From Microcystis aeruginosa NIES-2549 (lineage in GTDB: Bacteria; Cyanobacteriota; Cyanobacteriia; Cyanobacteriales; Microcystaceae), in assembly GCF_000981785.2 (NCBI RefSeq), contig NZ_CP011304.1:1740001-1772000 (forward strand): DNA of 32,000 nt, read 5' to 3'. The position numbers were made by a program, and so were the translations under genes. Each line of letters starts with the position of its first letter. Position 1 is the first letter of the stretch. Below are positions 9,712 to 21,170 of this stretch, piece after piece. The notes beneath the pieces were generated by a model. It was not told where the DNA came from, searched no databases, and saw nothing but the letters and a program-made list of their open reading frames with translations.

Positions 9712-10641
9712 TTGTTAGAAAATGCCAAGAAAATTACGGTTATAGGTGGGGGAATTTGGGGGCAAACTCTCGCTAATTTGGCTAGACGTAATCACTTAGC
9801 TGTTAGGGTTTGGTCTCGTCATACTGGGGAAGATTTAGGGGCTATTATAGCAGATACTGATGTAATTATTTCAGCAGTTTCGATTAAAGGAGTTGTTCCC
9901 ACGATCGAACAATTACAGCAATTACAATTAAATTCTTCCACAATTATCGTCACCGCCACTAAAGGATTAGAGCCAATCACCACTCGTACTCCTTTTCATC
10001 TCTGGAATCAAGCTTTTCCCGCTAATCCCCTTGTGGTTCTTTCTGGTCCCAATTTAGCTAAAGAAATTAATCAAGGTTTACCCGCTGCGACGGTGGTAGC
10101 AAGTTATGTGCAAAAAGCAGCGATATTGTTACAAAAATTATTATCTGGGGAATCTTTTCGGGTTTATCTGAATAGCGATCCCTTGGGGACTGAGTTAGGT
10201 GGCACTCTTAAAAATGTCATGGCGATCGCTTCTGGGGTTTGTGATGGTTTACAGTTAGGTACTAATGCCAAATCTGCCCTATTAACTCGCGCTTTACCGG
10301 AAATAATTCGGGTGGGAACTTGTCTAGGAGGTTGTCAAGAAACTTTCTTCGGTTTATCGGGTTTAGGGGATTTATTAGCTACCTGTAATAGTCCTTTATC
10401 CCGCAATTATCAAGTGGGTTATCAATTAGCTTTAGGTTTATCTTTGCCTGAGATTTTAGGGAAGTTAGAGGGAACTGCCGAGGGAATAAATACCACAGAA
10501 GTTTTGATGAGAATTGCCCAAGAAAAAAATTTATATGTACCGATTACCTGTCAAGTTGATCGTCTTTTGCGCGGGGAAATTTCTCCCCAAGTTGCCGTTT
10601 ATGAATTAATGCGTCGGGATCTAAAAGCAGAATTTGATTAA
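9712..10641 (+). CDS. gpsA: NAD(P)H-dependent glycerol-3-phosphate dehydrogenase
   Basis: N-terminal dinucleotide fold VIGGGIWG, plus GPNLAKEI and GTLKNVMAIASG motifs. TTG start preceded by AAGGAGG. Confidence 0.9.
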   Translation: MLENAKKITVIGGGIWGQTLANLARRNHLAVRVWSRHTGEDLGAIIADTDVIISAVSIKGVVPTIEQLQQLQLNSSTIIVTATKGLEPITTRTPFHLWNQAFPANPLVVLSGPNLAKEINQGLPAATVVASYVQKAAILLQKLLSGESFRVYLNSDPLGTELGGTLKNVMAIASGVCDGLQLGTNAKSALLTRALPEIIRVGTCLGGCQETFFGLSGLGDLLATCNSPLSRNYQVGYQLALGLSLPEILGKLEGTAEGINTTEVLMRIAQEKNLYVPITCQVDRLLRGEISPQVAVYELMRRDLKAEFD

Positions 10642-10759
10642 GAAACAAGAGATTTTTTAGTAAACAGTAAAAAGTAATCCGTGAGGGGTTAGCGAGTGGG
10701 GAAATGATGCCAAATCTGGTTATAATTCACATTTACCAGAAACGCTATATTCATTTCAA

Positions 10760-11839
10760 TCATTCCGAAATAACTAAATAAACTTCTAATCCTCTTTGAC
10801 CTTCTTTGTCAAATTTTAAGCCTATTTCAGAATCTTTTATCTCTCTGATTGGAATTCTTCGGCGAGGGGTATTTTTGCCATTTTTATTAATTTGAATACT
10901 TTCAATAATAGCATTTTGACATATTTTTTTATTTTCACTGACTAAAAAAACTTTTTTACCGACTTCTAGTCTTTTATTGGGTTCCTGTGGCTCATCTGAT
11001 ATTTTGATAGCACAGGCTTTTTTTTGTTGATACCAATTGACAATTTCACCGAGCTTTTGAAGCTTTCCTATCTTTTTCTTCCTATCAACAAAGCAATAAA
11101 GAACTAATTCACTCATAGCTTGACATATAGCTTCGACAAAATCACATAATTGTAGTAACTCATTGGCATTAAGAACGGTATCTATTTCTTTACCATGAGC
11201 AGAATTATTACGAAGTTCTATAAAATTCTTTAATTCATTTTCCACACTACCCCTACTATTATTGTCAATAAAATTCTTAACTTCTTTATGATTTTCTATC
11301 CATTGCCAAGAATCAGTTGCAGATATGCCAGCATCGACTAAAAGTCTGGTTAATTGATCTTTTCTCAGATTAGCTTCATGTAACAAAAAAGCAGCTGATG
11401 TGAGATTATATTTAGTTGTATTTTTGTATTCAGTATCAAATAAATTTTTGATAATGTCCCTCTCTGAAAGAGAATCGAAGCGATTTCTTTTATTTTCATT
11501 GCCCAGTAATGTAGCACAACCAGTCTGATGCTTATTTCTTACAGATTCAGGTAAATCTTGATAGCAACTATATAATTGAGGCAGCAAAATAATCCAATCT
11601 CCCACTAGATTTTCGACAAAATTTTCGTAAAGAGCATATAACCTTGTGATAGATGAACAATGATCGTTAACTAGCCACTTGTCTCCTAAAGGAGCATTTG
11701 CTTGAAGATATTTTAAGTCTTCTGTGTTGAGTTGTGAAGGATTATCCGCAATAATTTCTCTAAGTTTTTCACTGATATTAATTATTGATCGAATGGTCTT
11801 TATCTCATCCTTTAGGTTATTTAAAAGTCCTTCAAACAT
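10760..11839 (-). CDS. HEPN-like nuclease (R-x4-H motif; resembles the MAE_28990/MAE_18760 HEPN family) with a beta-rich C-terminal extension
   Basis: Mostly helical N-terminal ~250 aa containing ELRNNSAHG (Arg codon 11212-11210, His codon 11197-11195). Very AT-rich. ATG at 11839-11837 lies 2 nt after the stop of the upstream DUF262 gene. The track starts at TTG 11845, which would give a 4-nt overlap. Confidence 0.75.
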   Translation of the reverse strand: MFEGLLNNLKDEIKTIRSIINISEKLREIIADNPSQLNTEDLKYLQANAPLGDKWLVNDHCSSITRLYALYENFVENLVGDWIILLPQLYSCYQDLPESVRNKHQTGCATLLGNENKRNRFDSLSERDIIKNLFDTEYKNTTKYNLTSAAFLLHEANLRKDQLTRLLVDAGISATDSWQWIENHKEVKNFIDNNSRGSVENELKNFIELRNNSAHGKEIDTVLNANELLQLCDFVEAICQAMSELVLYCFVDRKKKIGKLQKLGEIVNWYQQKKACAIKISDEPQEPNKRLEVGKKVFLVSENKKICQNAIIESIQINKNGKNTPRRRIPIREIKDSEIGLKFDKEGQRGLEVYLVISE

Positions 11840-11841
11840 TC

Positions 11842-13053
11842 TCAAATACTCTGCTTAAGAACTCGTTGAATCAGAGAATCAAAAATTTGAATACGAGCTT
11901 TAAAATCATCTTTGGTATCCCCTTCTCCGGTGAAAAGTCCTTTTTTTAATTTTTTATCTTGATGAGTAATTCCCTGGGAATCTTGAGTAAATAAGCTGAT
12001 AGTTTCATCAATTATCGCTGATTTTCTAGTAATTAATTCTTGATAATCAGATAAATGGTTACTGAAACTGATCATCACTGCATCATAGTAAACTTTATAA
12101 GCTTTCGATTTATGTGTTTTGGTTTTACTATCGAAAGGCTTGAATAACTGATCCTGATAAATGTTAGATACTAACTCTATAGTTTGGTTAAATACTTGCT
12201 CGAACTCTTGGATATTCTCGTCGGAAAAATTAAGACTTTTTTTCATCATATAATTATCCAGATAGTTAGATAAATTACCTGTATATTTGTCAATATCCCT
12301 CAGGGCAAAAAAACGGAGGATTAATTCTACATCTTCCATCTTTTTATAAAATCGATTTTTTTTTAGTTCTTCTTTATCATCAATAGGAATATCCCAAGCT
12401 TTAGCAAAAATAGTATTCTCAGAAAGCTTTAATAAAAGTTCATTGAATTTCCCAGAGTAAAGACAGTTTCTTATTTCTTGTCGACTCAAAGATACACCTC
12501 CTGTATTGAGGCGTTCAAAAACCAGTTGTTTTAAAGATAAAGCTTCCTCTGTATCCGATAGAGACTCGGTAATAACAACTATAGTTGAAATGGCTCGTCG
12601 ATTGATACCATCTTTGATTTTTGCAGGAAGACTTTCATAGGTTCTTCCTTCTAATTCAGGCCAGATCTCTAACCCTGTTAATTTTAATTTGTTATTATAA
12701 AAATTCTCAATTGCTGTGATTCTTTGTTGACCATCCATTACTTGATATGAGTTATAGGAAGTTTCATAGAGAATCAGAGGAGGTACGGGAATATTCATCA
12801 AAAAAGATTCAATTAGTCTCGATTGTTTTTGTGCGTCCCAGCGATCCCGTCTCTGATAGAAAGGACGCTTTTTCACATAGTTAGGTTTATTTAAAGACTC
12901 AGCAAAACTAGGCAATTTTTCTCGATTCATTTCTAATAATATTCTTCGTTCACCTTGTTCATATTTTTCATTAATTTCATTATCTGATAATTTTTTAACA
13001 TCCTTTCGGGAACGTTTTTGCCAAGGATTTGTTTTAGTTTGTGAGATTGTCAT
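11842..13053 (-). CDS. DUF262 (ParB/Srx-like, GmrSD N-terminal type) domain protein without a DUF1524 nuclease half
   Basis: Hallmark string FYQRRDRWDAQKQSRLIESFLMNIPVPPLILYE...YQVMDGQQRITAIENFY (DGQQR motif). No His-Me/HNH-like motif seen in the C-terminal half. AT-rich. Confidence 0.8.
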   Translation of the reverse strand: MTISQTKTNPWQKRSRKDVKKLSDNEINEKYEQGERRILLEMNREKLPSFAESLNKPNYVKKRPFYQRRDRWDAQKQSRLIESFLMNIPVPPLILYETSYNSYQVMDGQQRITAIENFYNNKLKLTGLEIWPELEGRTYESLPAKIKDGINRRAISTIVVITESLSDTEEALSLKQLVFERLNTGGVSLSRQEIRNCLYSGKFNELLLKLSENTIFAKAWDIPIDDKEELKKNRFYKKMEDVELILRFFALRDIDKYTGNLSNYLDNYMMKKSLNFSDENIQEFEQVFNQTIELVSNIYQDQLFKPFDSKTKTHKSKAYKVYYDAVMISFSNHLSDYQELITRKSAIIDETISLFTQDSQGITHQDKKLKKGLFTGEGDTKDDFKARIQIFDSLIQRVLKQSI

Positions 13054-13132
13054 AATTTCCCACCAGAGGGGTACAAATTGATATGACCAGACTTACCTCA
13101 TTCATTTTTAAGCATAGACTGAGGATATATAC

Positions 13133-13186
13133 GAGAATTAAGAGTTATTGGTAATCTTCCCAGATAACTCTCAAAAGTTAATTCTC
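13133..13186. promoter_or_regulatory. Large imperfect palindrome in the upstream/leader region of the DUF262-HEPN operon (candidate operator or leader hairpin)
   Basis: GAGAATTAAGAGTTAT (13133-13148) pairs with ATAACTC (13164-13170) and TTAATTCTC (13178-13186). A 7-nt insertion on the right arm interrupts the pairing. It lies 80-133 nt upstream of ATG 13053. Confidence 0.35.
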
Positions 13187-13200
13187 TTAAATTGACAACT

Positions 13201-13228
13201 GGTCACTGATAACTGGTCACTGATAACT
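13201..13228. repeat. 2 x 14-nt tandem repeat GGTCACTGATAACT (contains the ATAACTG/CAGTTAT family core)
   Basis: Two exact copies read directly, abutting the sir stop codon (13231-13233). Confidence 0.85.
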
Positions 13229-13230
13229 GA

Positions 13231-15364: not shown

Positions 15365-17764
15365 ATGACCAATTCTCCCAACATTAAAACGGTTATTAGT
15401 CAAGAACCCTACATTATTCTTAACAATCAGGGAGAAATTCTCCCTTCTATTAATCTGAGTCGTCCTAATTATAAATTGGGTCGGGATGGTCAACAGGTGG
15501 ATTTAGTTGTTCCCCAACACTGGACGGTGGTGAGTCGAGTCCAAGCTTGTTTTCGTCGTCAGGGAGATGATTACTATATCTACGATGGAGACGGGACTAA
15601 TTCTAGTTCCAATAAACTTTTTATCAACAATCGTGTCATTACTCCCAAAGATGGCTATCTTTTACGAAATGGGGATGAGATTAATATCGGTCAAGATGCC
15701 AAAAATTCGGTCAAGATCACCTATTATCATCCTAACCAACCGGTAAAAAGCCAATCTTTCGCTTTTAAATCGGTTTCCCTCGGCCATCGCAGTGTAGTTT
15801 TAGGACGAGATAATGCTGCGACTGTGGTTTTAGACGCACCGACAATTTCCCGACAACACGCGATTATCGACAGCGATAACCAAAATCGTTATATTCTCTA
15901 CGACAAAAGCACCAATGGAGTCTTTATCGACGGAGAAAAAGTATCGGGTAGTGCCATTTTAACCAACGGTTGTACGGTGAGAATCGGCCCCTATAGTTTT
16001 CGGTTGCAGGGAGATGAATTAGTTTTATTAGATACAGGAGATAATATCCGTCTAGATGCCGAAAATATCGTCAGGATGGTGCGGGATAAAAAGAAACAAC
16101 CCTTGATAATTCTCAATCATATCTCCTTACCGATCGAACCGAGTCAATTAGTGGCGATTGTCGGGGGAAGTGGTGCGGGAAAATCGACTTTATTAAAGAC
16201 TTTATTGGGAATTGAACCCACCACATCGGGAACTGTTTATCTGAATGGGGAAGAGCTGCGCCAGAATTTTAATATCTATCGCACCCAAATCGGTTATGTT
16301 CCCCAATACGATATCGTCCACAGGGATTTAACCGTGGGAGAAGTGTTATATTATGCTTCTAAATTAAGGCTACCTCCGGATCTTAATTGCCAAGAAGTGA
16401 TCGAGAAAACCCTGCAGCAGGTGGAATTGTTAGCAAGAAGAAATACTTTAGTCAGAGACTTAAGTGGTGGTCAGTTAAAAAGGGTGAGTATTGCGGTAGA
16501 ATTATTAGCTAATCCCAAATTATTCTTTTTAGATGAACCCACCTCGGGATTAGACCCCGGTTTAGATAAAAAGATGATGGAATTGCTGGCAAAATTGGCC
16601 AAAGAAGGCAGAACAATTCTCCTAGTCACCCATGCTACTAATAATATCAATCTCTGCGATCGATTAGTTTTTCTTGGTCAAGGGGGCAATTTATGTTATT
16701 TTGGTTCTCCGGGGGAGGCCTTAAATTTTTTCTCTTTACCTCAGGGGGATTTTGCCGATATTTATATTCATCTGGAAACTAGCGAAAAAGTTGAGCAAGA
16801 ATGCCAACGTTTCCAACAATCTGACTACTACAAAAATAATATTGAAGCAAGAATCGGTAAAGTATTTCAGCAAAATAATAGTAAACCGCAACAGGTTCAA
16901 CAATCTTTTTGGCTACAACTACAGGTTTTATGTCAACGCTATAGCCAATTAATTATCCGCGATCAGGTTAGTTTAATTTTATACCTATTAACCGCCCCGA
17001 TCGGAATTTTTTTAATGGCCATGGTTTTAGGGGACGAAAATCCTTTATTTTTGGGGGATAATCCCAGTTTTGAGCAGGCTATCCAATCCGCACCTTTAGC
17101 ATTAAAAACTCTCTTTGTTTTTACCTGCGCGGAATTATGGGTAGGTTTTGCCTGTTCCCTACAGGAAATTGTCAAAGAATCGCCAATTTATCGGCGAGAA
17201 AGATTAGTTAATCTGGGATTATTACCCTATTTATTGTCAAAAAGTCTGGTTTTAGCAGCCGTAGCTTTTCTGCAAACAATTGTAATTACCTGCGTGATAT
17301 TTTGGGGATTTACTGACCCGCAACCGGAATTAATGACCTGGTTAATTGGCTGTTTTATTACCACATTTTTAACTATATTTGCGGCAATTAATCTCGGTTT
17401 ATTAATTTCTGCTGGTGTTAGTAATATCACCCAAGCAAATAGTGCCTTACCTTTAATTTTAATTCCTCAGATTATCTTTGCTGGGGTATTATTTAACTTA
17501 GAAGGTCTGGGAAAATATCTATCATGGTTGATGATTAGTCGCTGGTCAATTGCTGCCTACGGTGTATTAGTAGAGGTGGAAGCTATGATTGCAGAAGCGA
17601 AAGAACAAAATAGTTTTAATTTCCCTTTACCCTTTGAGGATGCCAATCAAGTTTATCAATTATCTATCAATAATTTGTTATTGAATTGGGGAGTATTAAT
17701 TCTTCATTCTCTTATTTATTTTCTCCTTACCTATTGGTGGCAAAAAAGAAAAGATATTTTATGA
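15365..17764 (+). CDS. Double-FHA-domain ABC transporter, fused ATP-binding and ABC-2-type permease (ABCG-like half transporter)
   Basis: Two FHA-like modules (YKLGRD...SRVQA...NKLFINN...GDEINIG and VVLGRD...ISRQHA...STNGVFIDG...GCTVRIG). Walker A GGSGAGKST, signature LSGGQLKRVSIA, Walker B LFFLDEPTSGLD, and about six C-terminal TM helices. Confidence 0.85.
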   Translation: MTNSPNIKTVISQEPYIILNNQGEILPSINLSRPNYKLGRDGQQVDLVVPQHWTVVSRVQACFRRQGDDYYIYDGDGTNSSSNKLFINNRVITPKDGYLLRNGDEINIGQDAKNSVKITYYHPNQPVKSQSFAFKSVSLGHRSVVLGRDNAATVVLDAPTISRQHAIIDSDNQNRYILYDKSTNGVFIDGEKVSGSAILTNGCTVRIGPYSFRLQGDELVLLDTGDNIRLDAENIVRMVRDKKKQPLIILNHISLPIEPSQLVAIVGGSGAGKSTLLKTLLGIEPTTSGTVYLNGEELRQNFNIYRTQIGYVPQYDIVHRDLTVGEVLYYASKLRLPPDLNCQEVIEKTLQQVELLARRNTLVRDLSGGQLKRVSIAVELLANPKLFFLDEPTSGLDPGLDKKMMELLAKLAKEGRTILLVTHATNNINLCDRLVFLGQGGNLCYFGSPGEALNFFSLPQGDFADIYIHLETSEKVEQECQRFQQSDYYKNNIEARIGKVFQQNNSKPQQVQQSFWLQLQVLCQRYSQLIIRDQVSLILYLLTAPIGIFLMAMVLGDENPLFLGDNPSFEQAIQSAPLALKTLFVFTCAELWVGFACSLQEIVKESPIYRRERLVNLGLLPYLLSKSLVLAAVAFLQTIVITCVIFWGFTDPQPELMTWLIGCFITTFLTIFAAINLGLLISAGVSNITQANSALPLILIPQIIFAGVLFNLEGLGKYLSWLMISRWSIAAYGVLVEVEAMIAEAKEQNSFNFPLPFEDANQVYQLSINNLLLNWGVLILHSLIYFLLTYWWQKRKDIL

Positions 17765-18990: not shown

Positions 18991-19191
18991 TGTGTTAGCA
19001 TCAGAGATAAGTATAAAACAGCCGAACGATTAAAGCGGGACTATTGGCTCTATGTGGTGTTTAACTGTGGGACAATGTCGGAAGTTTATGTCATTCGAGA
19101 TGCGGTTACGCTAGGACGGCAACCTGTTACAAGCATTGAACATTATCAGCTTCGACTAGAGGCAATTCTACGGCAGGATGAACGGGAATGA
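18991..19191 (+). pseudogene. C-terminal remnant of a helicase/restriction-associated nuclease-like (DUF3883-type) protein
   Basis: An open frame ends at TGA 19189-19191 and overlaps the next ATG (ATGA). It translates ...KYKTAERLKRDYWLYVVFNCGTMSEVYVIRDAVTLGRQPVTSIEHYQLRLEAILRQDERE. The ..A..L...YWLYVV....P.vy.I.dP pattern is the typical C-terminal end of such nuclease domains. There is no plausible start codon and no upstream body (stop at 18895-18897). Confidence 0.5.
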
Positions 19192-21170
19192 AGATCAGCA
19201 AAATTCAGATTAAAAATTTTAAGTCTTTTCAAAATGTTACCGTAGATTTAGATCCTGATTTTAATGTCTTTACTGGGGTTAATAATTCAGGAAAAACCAA
19301 TTTGCTAGAGGCGATCGCTCTTTGGCATGAGTGTTTTAACTTCTTGTTATACCAAGCAATTCGTGCTAAACCTGAACGTTATCGAGCGGGGCATTATGTT
19401 TTTAAAGATACTCAGTATTTACTTTACACAGATGTAAAAACGGTTCGTAGTTCTAATATTGATGACTTATTTTATCAGTGCGATAAAAGTCAAAAAATTG
19501 AATTAATCTTTATCTTTCAAGACATATATTCTGAGCAAAGACCAAACCCATTATTAAAGATTGGTTTTTCAATTACAAATTCCCATGGCAACAGCTACAA
19601 GCTAGAATTTTTAAATCGTCAAGATTTTGATTTTTTTCAGTTTAACCAACTATTTCATAATTTTCCTAAAGCAATTGGCTGTTCTTTTGCTTCTCCTGTT
19701 GCAACGATTAGAGCAGACGAAAGATTTTTAACTACTCCGCAGGTACTAGAAGCAATTCAAAAGCGAGAATCGGTTGAAGTCATTCGTAATCGTCTATACA
19801 CTCTTCATAGTGATCAAGCAGATCCTCAATTGTATGAGAGATTTAAGCGCGATTTGTCGTATATTCTCTTTGATAGCCCTAGTGCAGAGGTTAGCTTTTT
19901 TACTTCTAGTGATTTTCGGGATGATGTCAAAGTTATTATTAATTACAAAATTGATAATCGTGATATAGAAAAAGATATTTCTTTACTGGGAAGTGGGACA
20001 ATACAGATTATTGTAATTTTATTAAATTTATATTCTTTTGGGCAAAGAAATGATCTCAATTTGATTCTTTTTGATGAGCCTGATAGTCATATTCATCGTG
20101 ACATACAGAGTCGGCTAATCAATACACTGCTTAGATTCTCTGAGACAACACAAATTTTTTTAACAACTCATAATGAAAGTTTAATTCGACAGGTTTCTTT
20201 ACATCAATTATTTCATCTGGAAAATAGACCTCAATATAATTATAATGCTTTATCTCGACAAGAACTTCCCGTAGAGCCACGCTTTAAAGGAATTTATCCC
20301 TCTGCGCTAAATCCTATTATTAGTTCTTTAGGGAATAGTAATGGTTTAGATTTTATTAATGCCGTTGAAGCGGATAAAATCATTTTTGTCGAAGGTCAGG
20401 ATGATGCAAAAGCAATTTATACGTTATTACAAAAGAATACTATTGGTATAAATACAAAAAAATATTCTTTCTGGGTGATGGGCGGAGTCTCTCAAATTTT
20501 TAAGGATTTACCTAGTTATAAAAAGATTTTTCAGTTAATTAAAAATCAGCAGAATTTATGGCAAAAATCTGTGTTAATTTTTGATAGAGATTTCTTAAAT
20601 GACGACCATAAAAATCTAATTATAAATAATTTAAATAATCGGTTTAATTTGCCAACTTATATCCCAAGTGCATATACGTTTGAATCTATTTTATTGACAG
20701 ATTTTGATAAATTAGGTAGGTTACTTTTTCTGTGGTTAAGTCACCAGCAAAATTCGATTTCAGTGGATGCCGTAAGTCTTGCTCAAGGTCTTAAACAAGC
20801 CTATCTGAACTATATGAATCCCAAATTAGAGCAATTACTCAATGATAATGAGGCATTTGAACAAATCATCTATCAATGCCGCTCTATTCGGGATAAGCTT
20901 AAGAGTGATGATATGTTGGGTACAAATGATAGGTCAATTCCAGAAAATGATGTTCAATTATCAACTGCTTATCGCAACTATTTCAATCAAATTTTGAATA
21001 CACGGGATTTTTACAAGTATGCCAAAAAAGATGACGTTCAAGCAATTATCAATCAGGTGATCAGCCCTCATAATATAGCGTTTAATATTGAGCAGGATTT
21101 TATTGCTTTATTAGAATGCGTTGATCGCTCAACTTGGTTTGAGGAGTGGGATTTTTTAACGAGATTGTAG
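19188..21170 (+). CDS. ABC/SMC-like ATPase fused to a Toprim/DUF4435-like domain (OLD-family, GajA-like or fused-PARIS-like nuclease)
   Basis: IKNFKSF...FTGVNNSGKTNLLEAI gives Walker A at 19275-19298. Also seen are LLGSGTIQ, Walker B LILFDEPDSHIH (D296/E297 at 20073-20078) and FLTTHNESL. C-terminal IIFVEGQDD (Glu codon 20391-20393) and LIFDRDF (D-x-D at 20583-20591) are Toprim-like. Strongly AT-rich. Confidence 0.75.
   Translation: MKISKIQIKNFKSFQNVTVDLDPDFNVFTGVNNSGKTNLLEAIALWHECFNFLLYQAIRAKPERYRAGHYVFKDTQYLLYTDVKTVRSSNIDDLFYQCDKSQKIELIFIFQDIYSEQRPNPLLKIGFSITNSHGNSYKLEFLNRQDFDFFQFNQLFHNFPKAIGCSFASPVATIRADERFLTTPQVLEAIQKRESVEVIRNRLYTLHSDQADPQLYERFKRDLSYILFDSPSAEVSFFTSSDFRDDVKVIINYKIDNRDIEKDISLLGSGTIQIIVILLNLYSFGQRNDLNLILFDEPDSHIHRDIQSRLINTLLRFSETTQIFLTTHNESLIRQVSLHQLFHLENRPQYNYNALSRQELPVEPRFKGIYPSALNPIISSLGNSNGLDFINAVEADKIIFVEGQDDAKAIYTLLQKNTIGINTKKYSFWVMGGVSQIFKDLPSYKKIFQLIKNQQNLWQKSVLIFDRDFLNDDHKNLIINNLNNRFNLPTYIPSAYTFESILLTDFDKLGRLLFLWLSHQQNSISVDAVSLAQGLKQAYLNYMNPKLEQLLNDNEAFEQIIYQCRSIRDKLKSDDMLGTNDRSIPENDVQLSTAYRNYFNQILNTRDFYKYAKKDDVQAIINQVISPHNIAFNIEQDFIALLECVDRSTWFEEWDFLTRL

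Follow-up and report, generated by a model that had tools for sequence, protein, structure and literature searches.

What two tightly packed genes in an AT-rich islet of the Microcystis aeruginosa NIES-2549 genome do together, and whether they form a system of their own or belong to one already named, is the question raised by the locus described here. The window that we analysed is a stretch of 32,000 nucleotides (contig NZ_CP011304.1, positions 1,740,001 to 1,772,000), and all coordinates are counted from its first letter. Both genes lie on the minus strand, gene 1 at 11842-13053 (403 aa, ATG start) and gene 2 at 10760-11839 (359 aa), with a gap of 2 nt between them. The junction (11837..11845, minus strand) reads ...AGT ATT TGA GA ATG TTT..., where the TGA of gene 1 occupies 11844-11842 and the ATG of gene 2 11839-11837. 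If the TTG at 11845 is used instead, the open reading frame of gene 2 becomes 10760..11845 (361 aa) and overlaps gene 1 by 4 nt. Since every gene 2 homologue begins with 'MF', ATG 11839 is the likely start, giving the protein of 359 aa. The tight reverse-strand coupling claimed in a preliminary description of this DNA, with either gap or overlap, was thus read directly from the junction; its layout suggests translational coupling of the two genes, and in most of 77 related loci the distance between them was likewise -4 to +8 nt.

The pair sits in a 2.5 kb AT-rich islet between gpsA and sir, the identities of which (NAD_Gly3P_dh and NIR_SIR, respectively) were established on a 97%-identical locus (L012). 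The GC content was 0.30-0.33 over 10501-13000 as against 0.39-0.52 on either side, and the accessory character ascribed to the islet at the outset was borne out by the presence of other cargo at the same site elsewhere. In 13 Microcystis metagenome loci that lacked the pair, homology ended at window positions 10702-10751 and resumed at 13221, and three of them (L093, L096 and L099) carried a 3.3-kb cassette of an NTPase and a TPR protein between gpsA and sir instead. Direct adjacency of gpsA and sir in strains without the insert had been named as a point to check; no truly empty site was found among these 13 loci, which held other cargo or contig ends, and an exact-sequence search with Sir gave a single short contig. 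The gpsA-sir interval is a sharply bounded hotspot and the pair is strain-variable cargo within it. In some Microcystis strains the HEPN gene was frameshifted or truncated while the DUF262 gene was intact. The variable cassette (10703..13220, no strand assigned) contains just genes 1 and 2 and the non-coding region upstream of the operon (13054..13220, minus strand). At its outer end, 13193-13220, the cassette has a tandem repeat of 14 nt that runs into the stop codon of sir. No promoter-like site above chance was detected in 13054..13220, promoter-like and terminator-like sites did not exceed the shuffled expectation, an Rfam search gave no match, and the window showed neither direct nor inverted repeats at the flanks, nor a tRNA or an integrase.

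Domain matches of both proteins were far above chance. Gene 1 matched PF03235 GmrSD_N at 4.8e-26 in Pfam, and DUF1524 gave no match at E<=1 in either gene, in agreement with the preliminary assignment of gene 1 as a DUF262 protein lacking the DUF1524 half. The ParB-like DUF262 domain (aa 61-199 by the Pfam envelope; 12457..12873, minus strand) contains the motifs QRRDRW (12838-12855) and DGQQR (12721-12735), both checked by translation, as well as a FERLNTGG...QE.RN motif. These motifs were invariant in two alignments (A3 and A6), and DGxQR was found in 77/77 loci. The best PADLOC model for gene 1 was NsnA (1.8e-64; aa 58-400 on model positions 63-384 of 385), followed by PD-T4-2_A (1.1e-43; aa 58-390 on model positions 50-360 of 363), while none of the SspE and HEC-05/06 models reached E <= 1. 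By profile comparison gene 1 belongs to the NsnA / PD-T4-2_A branch, with GmrSD-like proteins scoring far lower. Its C-terminal helical domain (aa ~200-400; 11854..12456, minus strand) lies inside the full-length NsnA and PD-T4-2_A matches and appears to correspond to NsnA-C, the 'ParBDB' domain defined in PMC12065111, and would be predicted to bind DNA. The AF2 model of gene 1, built from 25 sequences, was helical and of pLDDT 80-97 over aa ~240-360, but poor overall (pLDDT 67.5, with the DUF262 core <50). Since the model was too poor, the ParBDB assignment rests on the NsnA profile match and not on structure; Foldseek against the PDB with this model returned nothing meaningful, and a PDB sequence search found BrxU alone (7p9k), weakly, at E 3.5e-4. 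The first 60 aa of gene 1 (12874..13053, minus strand) form an N-terminal extension that is conserved in alignment A3 (I27, N28, K30, Y31, R37, I38 and E41). The DUF262 partners of long HEPN proteins have it, whereas in the E. coli partner of a short HEPN protein it is reduced or missing; the enterobacterial DUF262 partners measure 350-376 aa. Relatives of gene 1 numbered at least 551 genome matches at 44-98% identity, and across phyla the DUF262 protein was 44-61% identical, which is unusually high for a defence gene.

Gene 2 (10760..11839, minus strand) is a long-form HEPN protein that matched PF18735 HEPN_RiboL-PSP (2.9e-18, 66.9 bits against a Pfam gathering cutoff of 28.4) and PF18737 HEPN_MAE_28990 (1.9e-14, 54.8 bits against 26.8), as expected from the earlier description of an Rx4H HEPN protein of the MAE_28990 type. 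The AF2 model of the protein (pLDDT 82.3, pTM 0.84) showed an all-helical HEPN domain (aa 1-256, with helices over aa 2-256; 11072..11839, minus strand). The Rx4H motif RNNSAH, confirmed by translation at 11195-11212, places the predicted catalytic pair at R210 and H215. R210, N211, A214 and H215 were invariant in alignments A1 and A2, and R210/H215 across 21 sequences. The pattern RNxx[A/S]H was present in 69/77 loci; of the eight HEPN reading frames without it, seven were truncated and one (L032) was of full length. At E<=1e-3 we found relatives of gene 2 in 759 representative clusters (50% identity), mostly of 330-420 aa. In hhalign, the profile of the long HEPN proteins matched the short enterobacterial HEPN partners over 154 columns, RN..AHG among them, with a probability of 90.6% and an E of 1.3e-6; a single-sequence alignment of gene 2 with an E. 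coli short HEPN protein covered the catalytic helix only. A PDB sequence search with gene 2 gave no match, and the top Foldseek matches in the PDB came from its C-terminal barrel, with no HEPN structure among them; the assignment of the HEPN fold thus rests on Pfam and the motif. Rx4-6H HEPN domains are known as RNases, and family knowledge points to gene 2 as a predicted RNase.

The remainder of gene 2 was modelled as a C-terminal beta-barrel of ~100 aa (aa 260-356; 10772..11062, minus strand), for which a Pfam scan of the isolated segment matched no family. Foldseek matched it to EF2, eIF5B, EF-Tu, EF-G, Snu114 and a U32 C-terminal barrel (E 6e-4 to 5e-2), and the barrel of one homologue matched GTP_EFTU_D2 weakly (E 0.023). 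The modelled fold is similar to domain II in translational GTPases; the similarity is modest and concerns a common small fold. The barrel was also conserved in the forms of Tabrizicola, Shewanella and Vibrio phage.

The preliminary description knew of no experimentally characterised and named system made up of exactly such a pair. This did not hold, because PD-T4-2 (Vassallo 2022) from E. coli ECOR65 is a two-gene system listed as 'DUF262, HEPN' with the same two HEPN families, and the supposition that the pair falls outside already named systems was overturned at the level of architecture. PD-T4-2 spans 1540 bp as a whole system and protected against T4 both when cloned and, as judged by deletion, in its native ECOR65; no mechanism of PD-T4-2 was found in the literature searched. 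We compared the Microcystis pair with E. coli and Klebsiella plasmid pairs and with the published HHpred tables. Both systems are tightly coupled two-gene operons in which a DUF262 gene without DUF1524 precedes a HEPN gene, and both are found on mobile elements. In HHpred, PF18735 was best and PF18737 second for PD-T4-2B, the order in which the two families also matched gene 2, and gene 1 matched PD-T4-2_A over its full length. The short HEPN gene followed the DUF262 gene directly in three annotated enterobacterial pairs, and the PADLOC pattern of gene 1 was common to the DUF262 proteins of E. coli, Klebsiella and Acinetobacter plasmids. The differences lie in gene 2, which has 359 aa and a barrel whereas PD-T4-2B is a single-domain protein of ~165-190 aa; in gene 1, which carries the conserved N-terminal extension of ~40-60 aa; and in the host, a cyanobacterium in which the pair is known here from sequence, whereas protection was demonstrated for ECOR65 only. 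The PADLOC PD-T4-2_B model (168 positions) did not match gene 2 at E<=1. It also missed three of four enterobacterial short-HEPN partners and found the fourth at 4.4e-4, and is therefore a narrow model. The Microcystis pair is a longer-effector variant of a PD-T4-2-type system and not an unnamed new one. An earlier precedent is the purely comparative study of Anantharaman et al. 2013, which reported ParB-HEPN operons for the Ribo L-PSP-HEPN and MAE_28990 families; these have the same HEPN families and the same operonic ParB-like partner, but the C-terminal barrel was not described and the defence/RNase role was a prediction.

The conservation of the two genes as neighbours, another expectation of the preliminary description, was confirmed in all 77 evaluable species genomes, where the HEPN gene lay directly downstream of the DUF262 gene on the same strand, and the same arrangement was seen in 6/6 loci when the search started from the HEPN side. 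These genomes came from Cyanobacteria, Proteobacteria, Acidobacteria, Planctomycetes, Verrucomicrobia, Bacteroidota, Armatimonadota and CPR, and pairs with a long HEPN protein occur in at least several hundred species. Among 140 immediately flanking reading frames (naive ORF calls, +/-1 gene) there was no conserved third gene, which makes the pair self-contained. The expected embedding in defence islands was not seen at the immediately adjacent genes, which were mostly housekeeping genes and matched defence models at no more than 4 of 70 loci (+/-1 gene, naive ORF calls); the same 70-locus census revealed no methyltransferase conserved beside the pair. The pair is horizontally mobile. It was found on an 8.2 kb MOBQ plasmid of Tabrizicola, where it adjoins a DNA methyltransferase gene, on a 3.9 kb plasmid of E. 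coli, on IncF plasmids where it adjoins ccdAB and pemIK, beside an integron integrase, and directly after cI in P2/186-like Vibrio prophages.

Taken with the homology to the PD-T4-2 class, these results favour the reading of the locus as a PD-T4-2-type anti-phage module, self-contained and horizontally mobile, in which two genes would encode a sensor NTPase and a HEPN RNase; to this reading we assign a probability of about 0.68. The candidate defence or abortive-infection role first proposed for the pair is supported. Gene 1, with its ParB-fold DUF262 NTPase and helical ParBDB domain, likely acts as the switch or sensor. Like SspE, GmrSD and BrxU, it would recognise nucleic acid, in all probability phage DNA, and in response bind or hydrolyse NTP in the pocket of the QRxxxW / DGQQR / FxxxN motifs. 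Gene 2 would be the effector RNase with R210 and H215 as catalytic residues, probably kept inactive by gene 1 until infection, when it would cleave cellular and/or phage RNA so that translation stops, with abortive infection or growth arrest as the outcome. The barrel of gene 2 may dock the RNase on tRNA or the ribosome, or may form the interface with gene 1. Counted against the anti-phage reading were the lack of defence-island support at +/-1 gene, the failure of the PD-T4-2_B model to find gene 2 and the unusually high conservation of the DUF262 protein.

Other assignments of the pair were weighed as well. GmrSD, BrxU and SspE have the same N-terminal NTPase with QRxxxW, DGQQR and FxxxN, and the weak match of gene 1 links it to BrxU in sequence, but they are single-chain DUF262-DUF1524 proteins, whereas the Microcystis pair has no DUF1524 His-Me nuclease and its effector is a separate protein, a predicted RNase rather than a DNase or nickase. 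The early picture of a 'split GmrSD' was only loosely right; gene 1 is closer to NsnA and PD-T4-2_A. A modification-dependent (type IV) restriction system of the GmrSD kind divided over two genes, in which DUF262 reads modified phage DNA and the HEPN protein acts on DNA, would be consistent with the shared motifs, with the methyltransferase gene on the Tabrizicola plasmid and with the selection of PD-T4-2 on T4, whose DNA contains glucosyl-hmC. We consider it quite improbable given that no DUF1524 or other DNase domain is present, that Rx4-6H HEPN domains are known RNases, that a methyltransferase is not a conserved neighbour in the 70 loci and that SspE, HEC-05 and HEC-06 scores are absent or marginal. 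The NsnA match raised the further idea of a degenerate or split Menshen. In Menshen (NsnABC; Millman 2022; Bell et al. NAR 2025) the genes are contiguous, NsnB being an ABC-ATPase (AAA_15 + DUF3696) directly downstream of NsnA and NsnC, an effector that is mostly an RNase, having an inPIN N-terminal domain and a nuclease. The architecture of gene 1 (ParB-DUF262 + ParBDB) and the proposed logic of a DNA sensor with an RNase effector would be alike, but the Microcystis cassette has the HEPN protein directly coupled to the sensor, no NsnB transducer downstream, no inPIN-type NsnC and no third gene, the next gene being gpsA on the other strand. An orphan NsnA could act in trans with an OLD-family ABC-ATPase/TOPRIM protein 6 kb away (660 aa, 19188-21170), which matches NsnB at 3.4e-20 among many ABC-ATPase defence models. 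That gene, however, is on the opposite strand in an AT-rich islet of its own, and its matches to AriA, GajA and Old are no weaker than the one to NsnB; the downstream partner was a HEPN protein in 77/77 related loci and an ABC ATPase in none. Since the E. coli DUF262 proteins paired with short HEPN proteins also score higher with NsnA than with PD-T4-2_A, the better NsnA score reflects no more than the greater breadth of that model. A Menshen identity, rejected for the absence of NsnB and NsnC and largely refuted by the gene-neighbour census, is thus extremely improbable.

A role primarily as a toxin-antitoxin or addiction module, with a HEPN RNase toxin and a DUF262 antitoxin that stabilise plasmids, prophages and islets and sense no phage, appears unlikely to us. 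The Rx4-6H motif of gene 2 is that of AbiD/AbiF, HepT-MntA and RnlA, although its partner is a DUF262 NTPase and not MNT, an RNA antitoxin or RnlB, and gene 2 has the additional barrel. Precedents are MNT for HepT and the ParA/Soj proteins proposed with MAE_18760 HEPN domains, and an analogous ATPase-HEPN dyad was put forward by Anantharaman 2013. The 'antitoxin first' order with translational coupling, the very small plasmids of E. coli and Tabrizicola, the company of ccdAB and pemIK on IncF plasmids and the stand-alone insertions amid housekeeping genes would all suit such a module, and the broken HEPN genes beside intact DUF262 genes in some Microcystis strains would fit toxin decay. An antitoxin of 400 aa with invariant NTPase motifs and 44-61% identity across phyla would be atypical, however, and the homologous PD-T4-2 protects against phage. 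Toxin-antitoxin action and abortive infection are moreover compatible, so that this explanation is partly a sub-case of the anti-phage reading. We also considered whether the long-HEPN pairs might be a mechanistically distinct system, in which the barrel docks the RNase on the ribosome or aminoacyl-tRNA for translation-coupled cleavage and the unusually conserved DUF262 protein with its N-terminal extension gates the RNase by sensing a conserved signal, either a nucleic acid or a nucleotide; we hold this to be rather doubtful.

The anti-phage reading does not introduce a new principle, for the prediction of a sensor working with a HEPN protein dates from 2013 and its validation from 2022. It means that the validated E. 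coli system PD-T4-2 has a widespread relative with a long effector, which is carried by plasmids and prophages and spans eight phyla or more. It also points to a gap in annotation, since the effector model is too narrow for current PADLOC profiles to call the long-effector pair, which they would miss. The unannotated barrel on a predicted RNase offers a hypothesis for the way in which effectors of this kind might locate the RNA that they cleave, and the ribosome-docking reading would, if true, provide a first mechanistic handle on the whole PD-T4-2 class. For Microcystis, a bloom-forming organism under heavy cyanophage pressure, a strain-variable cassette of this kind bears on differences in phage resistance between strains.

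The two genes under study lie on the minus strand of the window and are flanked by gpsA and sir. Gene 1, encoding the DUF262 (ParB-like) protein, is an open reading frame of 403 aa with an ATG start (11842-13053), and gene 2, encoding the HEPN protein, spans 10760-11845 (361 aa) if begun at TTG. At the junction, which reads AGT ATT TGA GA ATG TTT on the minus strand, the TGA of gene 1 (11844-11842) is separated from an ATG (11839-11837) by a gap of 2 nt; the genes overlap by 4 nt when TTG 11845 serves as start. Since 'MF' opens all homologues, ATG 11839 is the likely start of gene 2 (359 aa). The GC content was 0.30-0.33 across 10501-13000, compared with 0.39-0.52 for the flanks. In all details that could be checked the preliminary description proved correct. 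Homologues 85-100% identical place the DNA in Microcystis aeruginosa or a close relative. In most Microcystis database entries (protein cluster P0032 and others, and loci L013 and L014) the gene 1 product has 419 aa, with 16 additional aa at the N-terminus; in the window, the sequence at 13054-13101 does not permit extension of the ORF past 403 aa.

The gene 1 product matched the Pfam model GmrSD_N/DUF262 (PF03235, 4.8e-26) over aa 61-199 and gave no DUF1524-like Pfam match, as had been proposed from the sequence. Membership of the GmrSD type was rejected on DUF1524. With PADLOC models, nearly end-to-end matches were obtained to NsnA, the sensor of Menshen (NsnABC), at 1.8e-64 and to PD-T4-2_A at 1.1e-43. 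A reading as Menshen failed because NsnB and NsnC were absent from this locus and from all 77 related loci in other genomes. The three DUF262 motifs (QRRxRW, DGQQR and FERLNxGG..L..QE.RN) were invariant in a cross-phylum alignment of 14 sequences, and DGxQR was kept in 77/77 related loci. Its C-terminal half is the counterpart of the 'ParBDB' domain, a helical DNA-binding domain described from NsnA, GmrSD-M, SspE-M and DndB-C (PMC12065111). The AF2 model was confident in this half alone, and its overall quality was insufficient for a fold search. Alignment revealed a conserved N-terminal extension confined to pairs with a long HEPN, that is, an effector of ~360 aa with a C-terminal barrel, as in gene 2.

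Over aa 5-246 the gene 2 product matched HEPN_RiboL-PSP (PF18735, 2.9e-18) and HEPN_MAE_28990 (PF18737, 1.9e-14). R210, N211, A214 and H215 of the Rx4H motif (RNNSAH) were invariant in 21 sequences, alpha- and gammaproteobacterial members among them. The earlier assignment to Rx4H HEPN proteins of the MAE_28990 type was upheld. The AF2 model (pLDDT 82.3, pTM 0.84) was all-helical over aa 1-256 and continued into a beta-barrel at aa 260-356, which is covered by no Pfam model. Foldseek matched this barrel to domain II of translational GTPases (EF2, Snu114, eIF5B, EF-Tu and EF-G) with E-values of 6e-4 to 5e-2, a range that also included a U32-peptidase C-terminal barrel; the barrel of one gene 2 homologue matched GTP_EFTU_D2 weakly (0.023). 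Some Microcystis genomes combine a full-length DUF262 gene with a frameshifted or truncated HEPN gene (218-299 aa; L014, 6186-7263; protein clusters P0009-P0015, M. aeruginosa DIANCHI905 included), and the break in L014 lies inside the barrel at ~aa 298. These breaks beside an intact DUF262 gene suggest recurrent effector inactivation in Microcystis.

The preliminary description knew of no named system with this gene content. That claim did not stand: PD-T4-2 of Escherichia coli ECOR65, listed as 'DUF262, HEPN' (1540 bp) by Vassallo et al. 2022, is both named and validated. The cloned system protects against T4, and its deletion from ECOR65 restores T4 plaquing. ParB-HEPN operons had been noted still earlier by Anantharaman et al. 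HHpred analysis by Vassallo et al. assigned PD-T4-2A to PF03235 (99.7%) and PD-T4-2B to PF18735 (97.8%) and then PF18737 (96.9%); both HEPN families and their ranking agree with those of gene 2. PD-T4-2 is counted among the DUF262 systems without DUF1524, and described as uncharacterised, in a review of 2023 and a NAR paper of 2025 (PMC12065111), and no mechanistic study of it was found in the literature searched. As sequence proxies, standing in for the ECOR65 proteins themselves, we used enterobacterial plasmid pairs from E. coli pLR-27_3 (373 + 191 aa), two IncF plasmids (353 + 211 aa and 350 + 180 aa) and a Klebsiella plasmid (360 + 261 aa). Their DUF262 proteins matched PADLOC models in the pattern seen for gene 1 (NsnA e-62 to e-75, PD-T4-2_A e-37 to e-50), and a DUF262 protein of an Acinetobacter plasmid, for which no partner is annotated, matched NsnA at e-80. 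The proxy HEPN partners gave no match to the PD-T4-2_B model, or 4.4e-4 at best, which shows that the B model is narrow and that the effector is hypervariable across the class as a whole. The pLR-27_3 HEPN is itself a PF18735 member (5.3e-18). A profile of the long HEPNs aligned with a profile of four short enterobacterial HEPNs at 90.6% probability (E 1.3e-6) over 154 columns including the catalytic helix, which was the only part aligned in single-sequence comparison. Gene 1 thus agrees with component A of PD-T4-2, and gene 2 agrees with component B by Pfam and profile comparison but differs from it by the PADLOC B model, size and architecture. Rather than an unnamed system, the pair is a variant with a long effector within the PD-T4-2 class of DUF262 + HEPN modules.

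The pairing was conserved from whichever gene the search began. All six distant HEPN homologues (33-42% identity) had a DUF262 gene immediately upstream at a gap of 4-7 nt, with different flanking genes each time. From the DUF262 side, with one genome scanned per species, at least 551 of 600 candidate stretches were confirmed; a HEPN-family ORF lay directly downstream on the same strand in 77 of the best 80 of these loci, and the remaining three reached a contig edge. Pairs occurred in Cyanobacteria, Alpha-, Beta- and Gammaproteobacteria, Myxococcota, Acidobacteria, Planctomycetes, Verrucomicrobia, Bacteroidota, Armatimonadota, Bdellovibrionota and one CPR bacterium. With gene 2 as query, exhaustive HMMER searching yielded 759 representative clusters at E<=1e-3 (350 at E<=1e-10), mostly of 330-420 aa. 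Median identity to the window proteins in the 77 loci (within L012-L091) was 54% for DUF262 versus 37% for HEPN, so that the effector evolves faster than the sensor. Across phyla the DUF262 partner was 44-61% identical to the window protein, a conservation unusually high for a defence-system sensor. Neither a conserved third gene nor a methyltransferase was present among the 140 ORFs immediately flanking the pairs, and the module is self-contained. The neighbours were mostly housekeeping genes with few defence-model matches (at most 4/70), and embedding in defence islands was not seen at +/-1 gene.

Pairs were also found on mobile elements: on an 8.2-kb MOBQ plasmid of Tabrizicola piscis (L008, 698-5267), on Shewanella baltica pS19502 next to an integron integrase, and on a plasmid of Nostoc whose HEPN gene lacks an annotation. 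In L008 a 708-aa DNA methyltransferase lies directly upstream in the same orientation, an echo of the methylase association noted in 2013; such a neighbour was absent from the 70-locus chromosomal census. In P2/186-like Vibrio cyclitrophicus prophages the pair is directly downstream of the cI repressor gene and co-oriented with it. The slot just after cI is a classic place for prophage-encoded defence cargo. In Vibrio phage 10N.286.55.A5_PE003 (L177, 2683-5704), a P2/186-like prophage, cI is directly followed by a long-form pair (402 + 355 aa, overlapping by 4 nt), with MazG-like and HmuI-like/HNH endonuclease annotations nearby, and this region looks like lysogeny-expressed defence cargo.

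The same gpsA-sir position is occupied by the pair in LEGE 91341, M. ichthyoblabe FBCC-A1114 and a 1980 MAG. The pair was absent from 13 metagenome loci whose GpsA is 94-99% identical. Homology to these loci ends at 10702-10751 of the window and restarts at 13221, and the variable segment therefore consists of exactly the two genes and their upstream region. At the site equivalent to 10703-13220, L093 (7235-10240), L096 and L099 contain a 3.3-kb alternative cassette encoding a 417-aa AAA_16/KAP/STAND-like NTPase, with a weak PifA match (1e-05), and a 582-aa TPR protein; L097 has an IS605 OrfB/TnpB-like ORF instead. A truly empty site was not recovered among the 13 pair-less Microcystis loci. 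The site acts like a hotspot of cassette exchange whose borders stay fixed. At 13193-13230, starting just past the stop codon of sir, the 14-nt unit CAGTTATCAGTGAC (minus strand) is repeated in tandem about 2.7 times. The repeats lie exactly at the border beyond which the alternative-cargo loci are no longer homologous; those loci have a hairpin terminator in this place. A recombination or regulatory role of the repeats is possible.

Elsewhere in the window, an OLD-family ABC ATPase of 660 aa is encoded in a second AT-rich islet (19188-21170, plus strand, GC 0.30-0.37). It gave Pfam matches to AAA_15 (3.4e-27), AAA_21 (6e-17) and, in a weak C-terminal TOPRIM region, OLD-like_TOPRIM (0.0085), and PADLOC matches to AriA (5.9e-24), NsnB (3.4e-20), GajA, Old and PtuA. 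No helicase or AriB-like partner was seen adjoining this gene, which probably represents a defence candidate of its own, single-gene and OLD/Gabija/PARIS-like. The 799-aa protein beside sir (15365-17764, plus strand) matched the PADLOC models mad3, AriA and NsnB through its ABC-type ATPase core only, which probably reflects generic ABC similarity, not defence.

DUF262 domains are established ParB-fold NTPases, which in SspE, GmrSD and BrxU recognise modified or phosphorothioated DNA and in response activate an attached nuclease; HEPN domains with an Rx4-6H motif act as RNases whose active site is usually formed by dimerisation. In the most likely model, gene 1 would bind or survey DNA through its ParB-DUF262 and ParBDB domains and hold its HEPN partner in an inactive state. 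The nucleotide state of gene 1 would be altered by phage DNA or some other cue of infection, and the RNase, then freed or activated, would cleave RNA and arrest translation. The barrel may guide the RNase towards tRNA or the ribosome, or may offer gene 1 a docking surface. The main rival is a toxin-antitoxin or addiction module, which accords with much of the same evidence and is supported by the HEPN frameshifts in some strains; it is compatible with the defence reading too.

Three features are modestly new: the effector's unannotated barrel, which is GTPase-domain-II-like, how widely and how strictly DUF262 and HEPN genes are paired, and the sharply bounded gpsA-sir hotspot in Microcystis. 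The finding would gain interest if the barrel does direct the RNase to the translation machinery.
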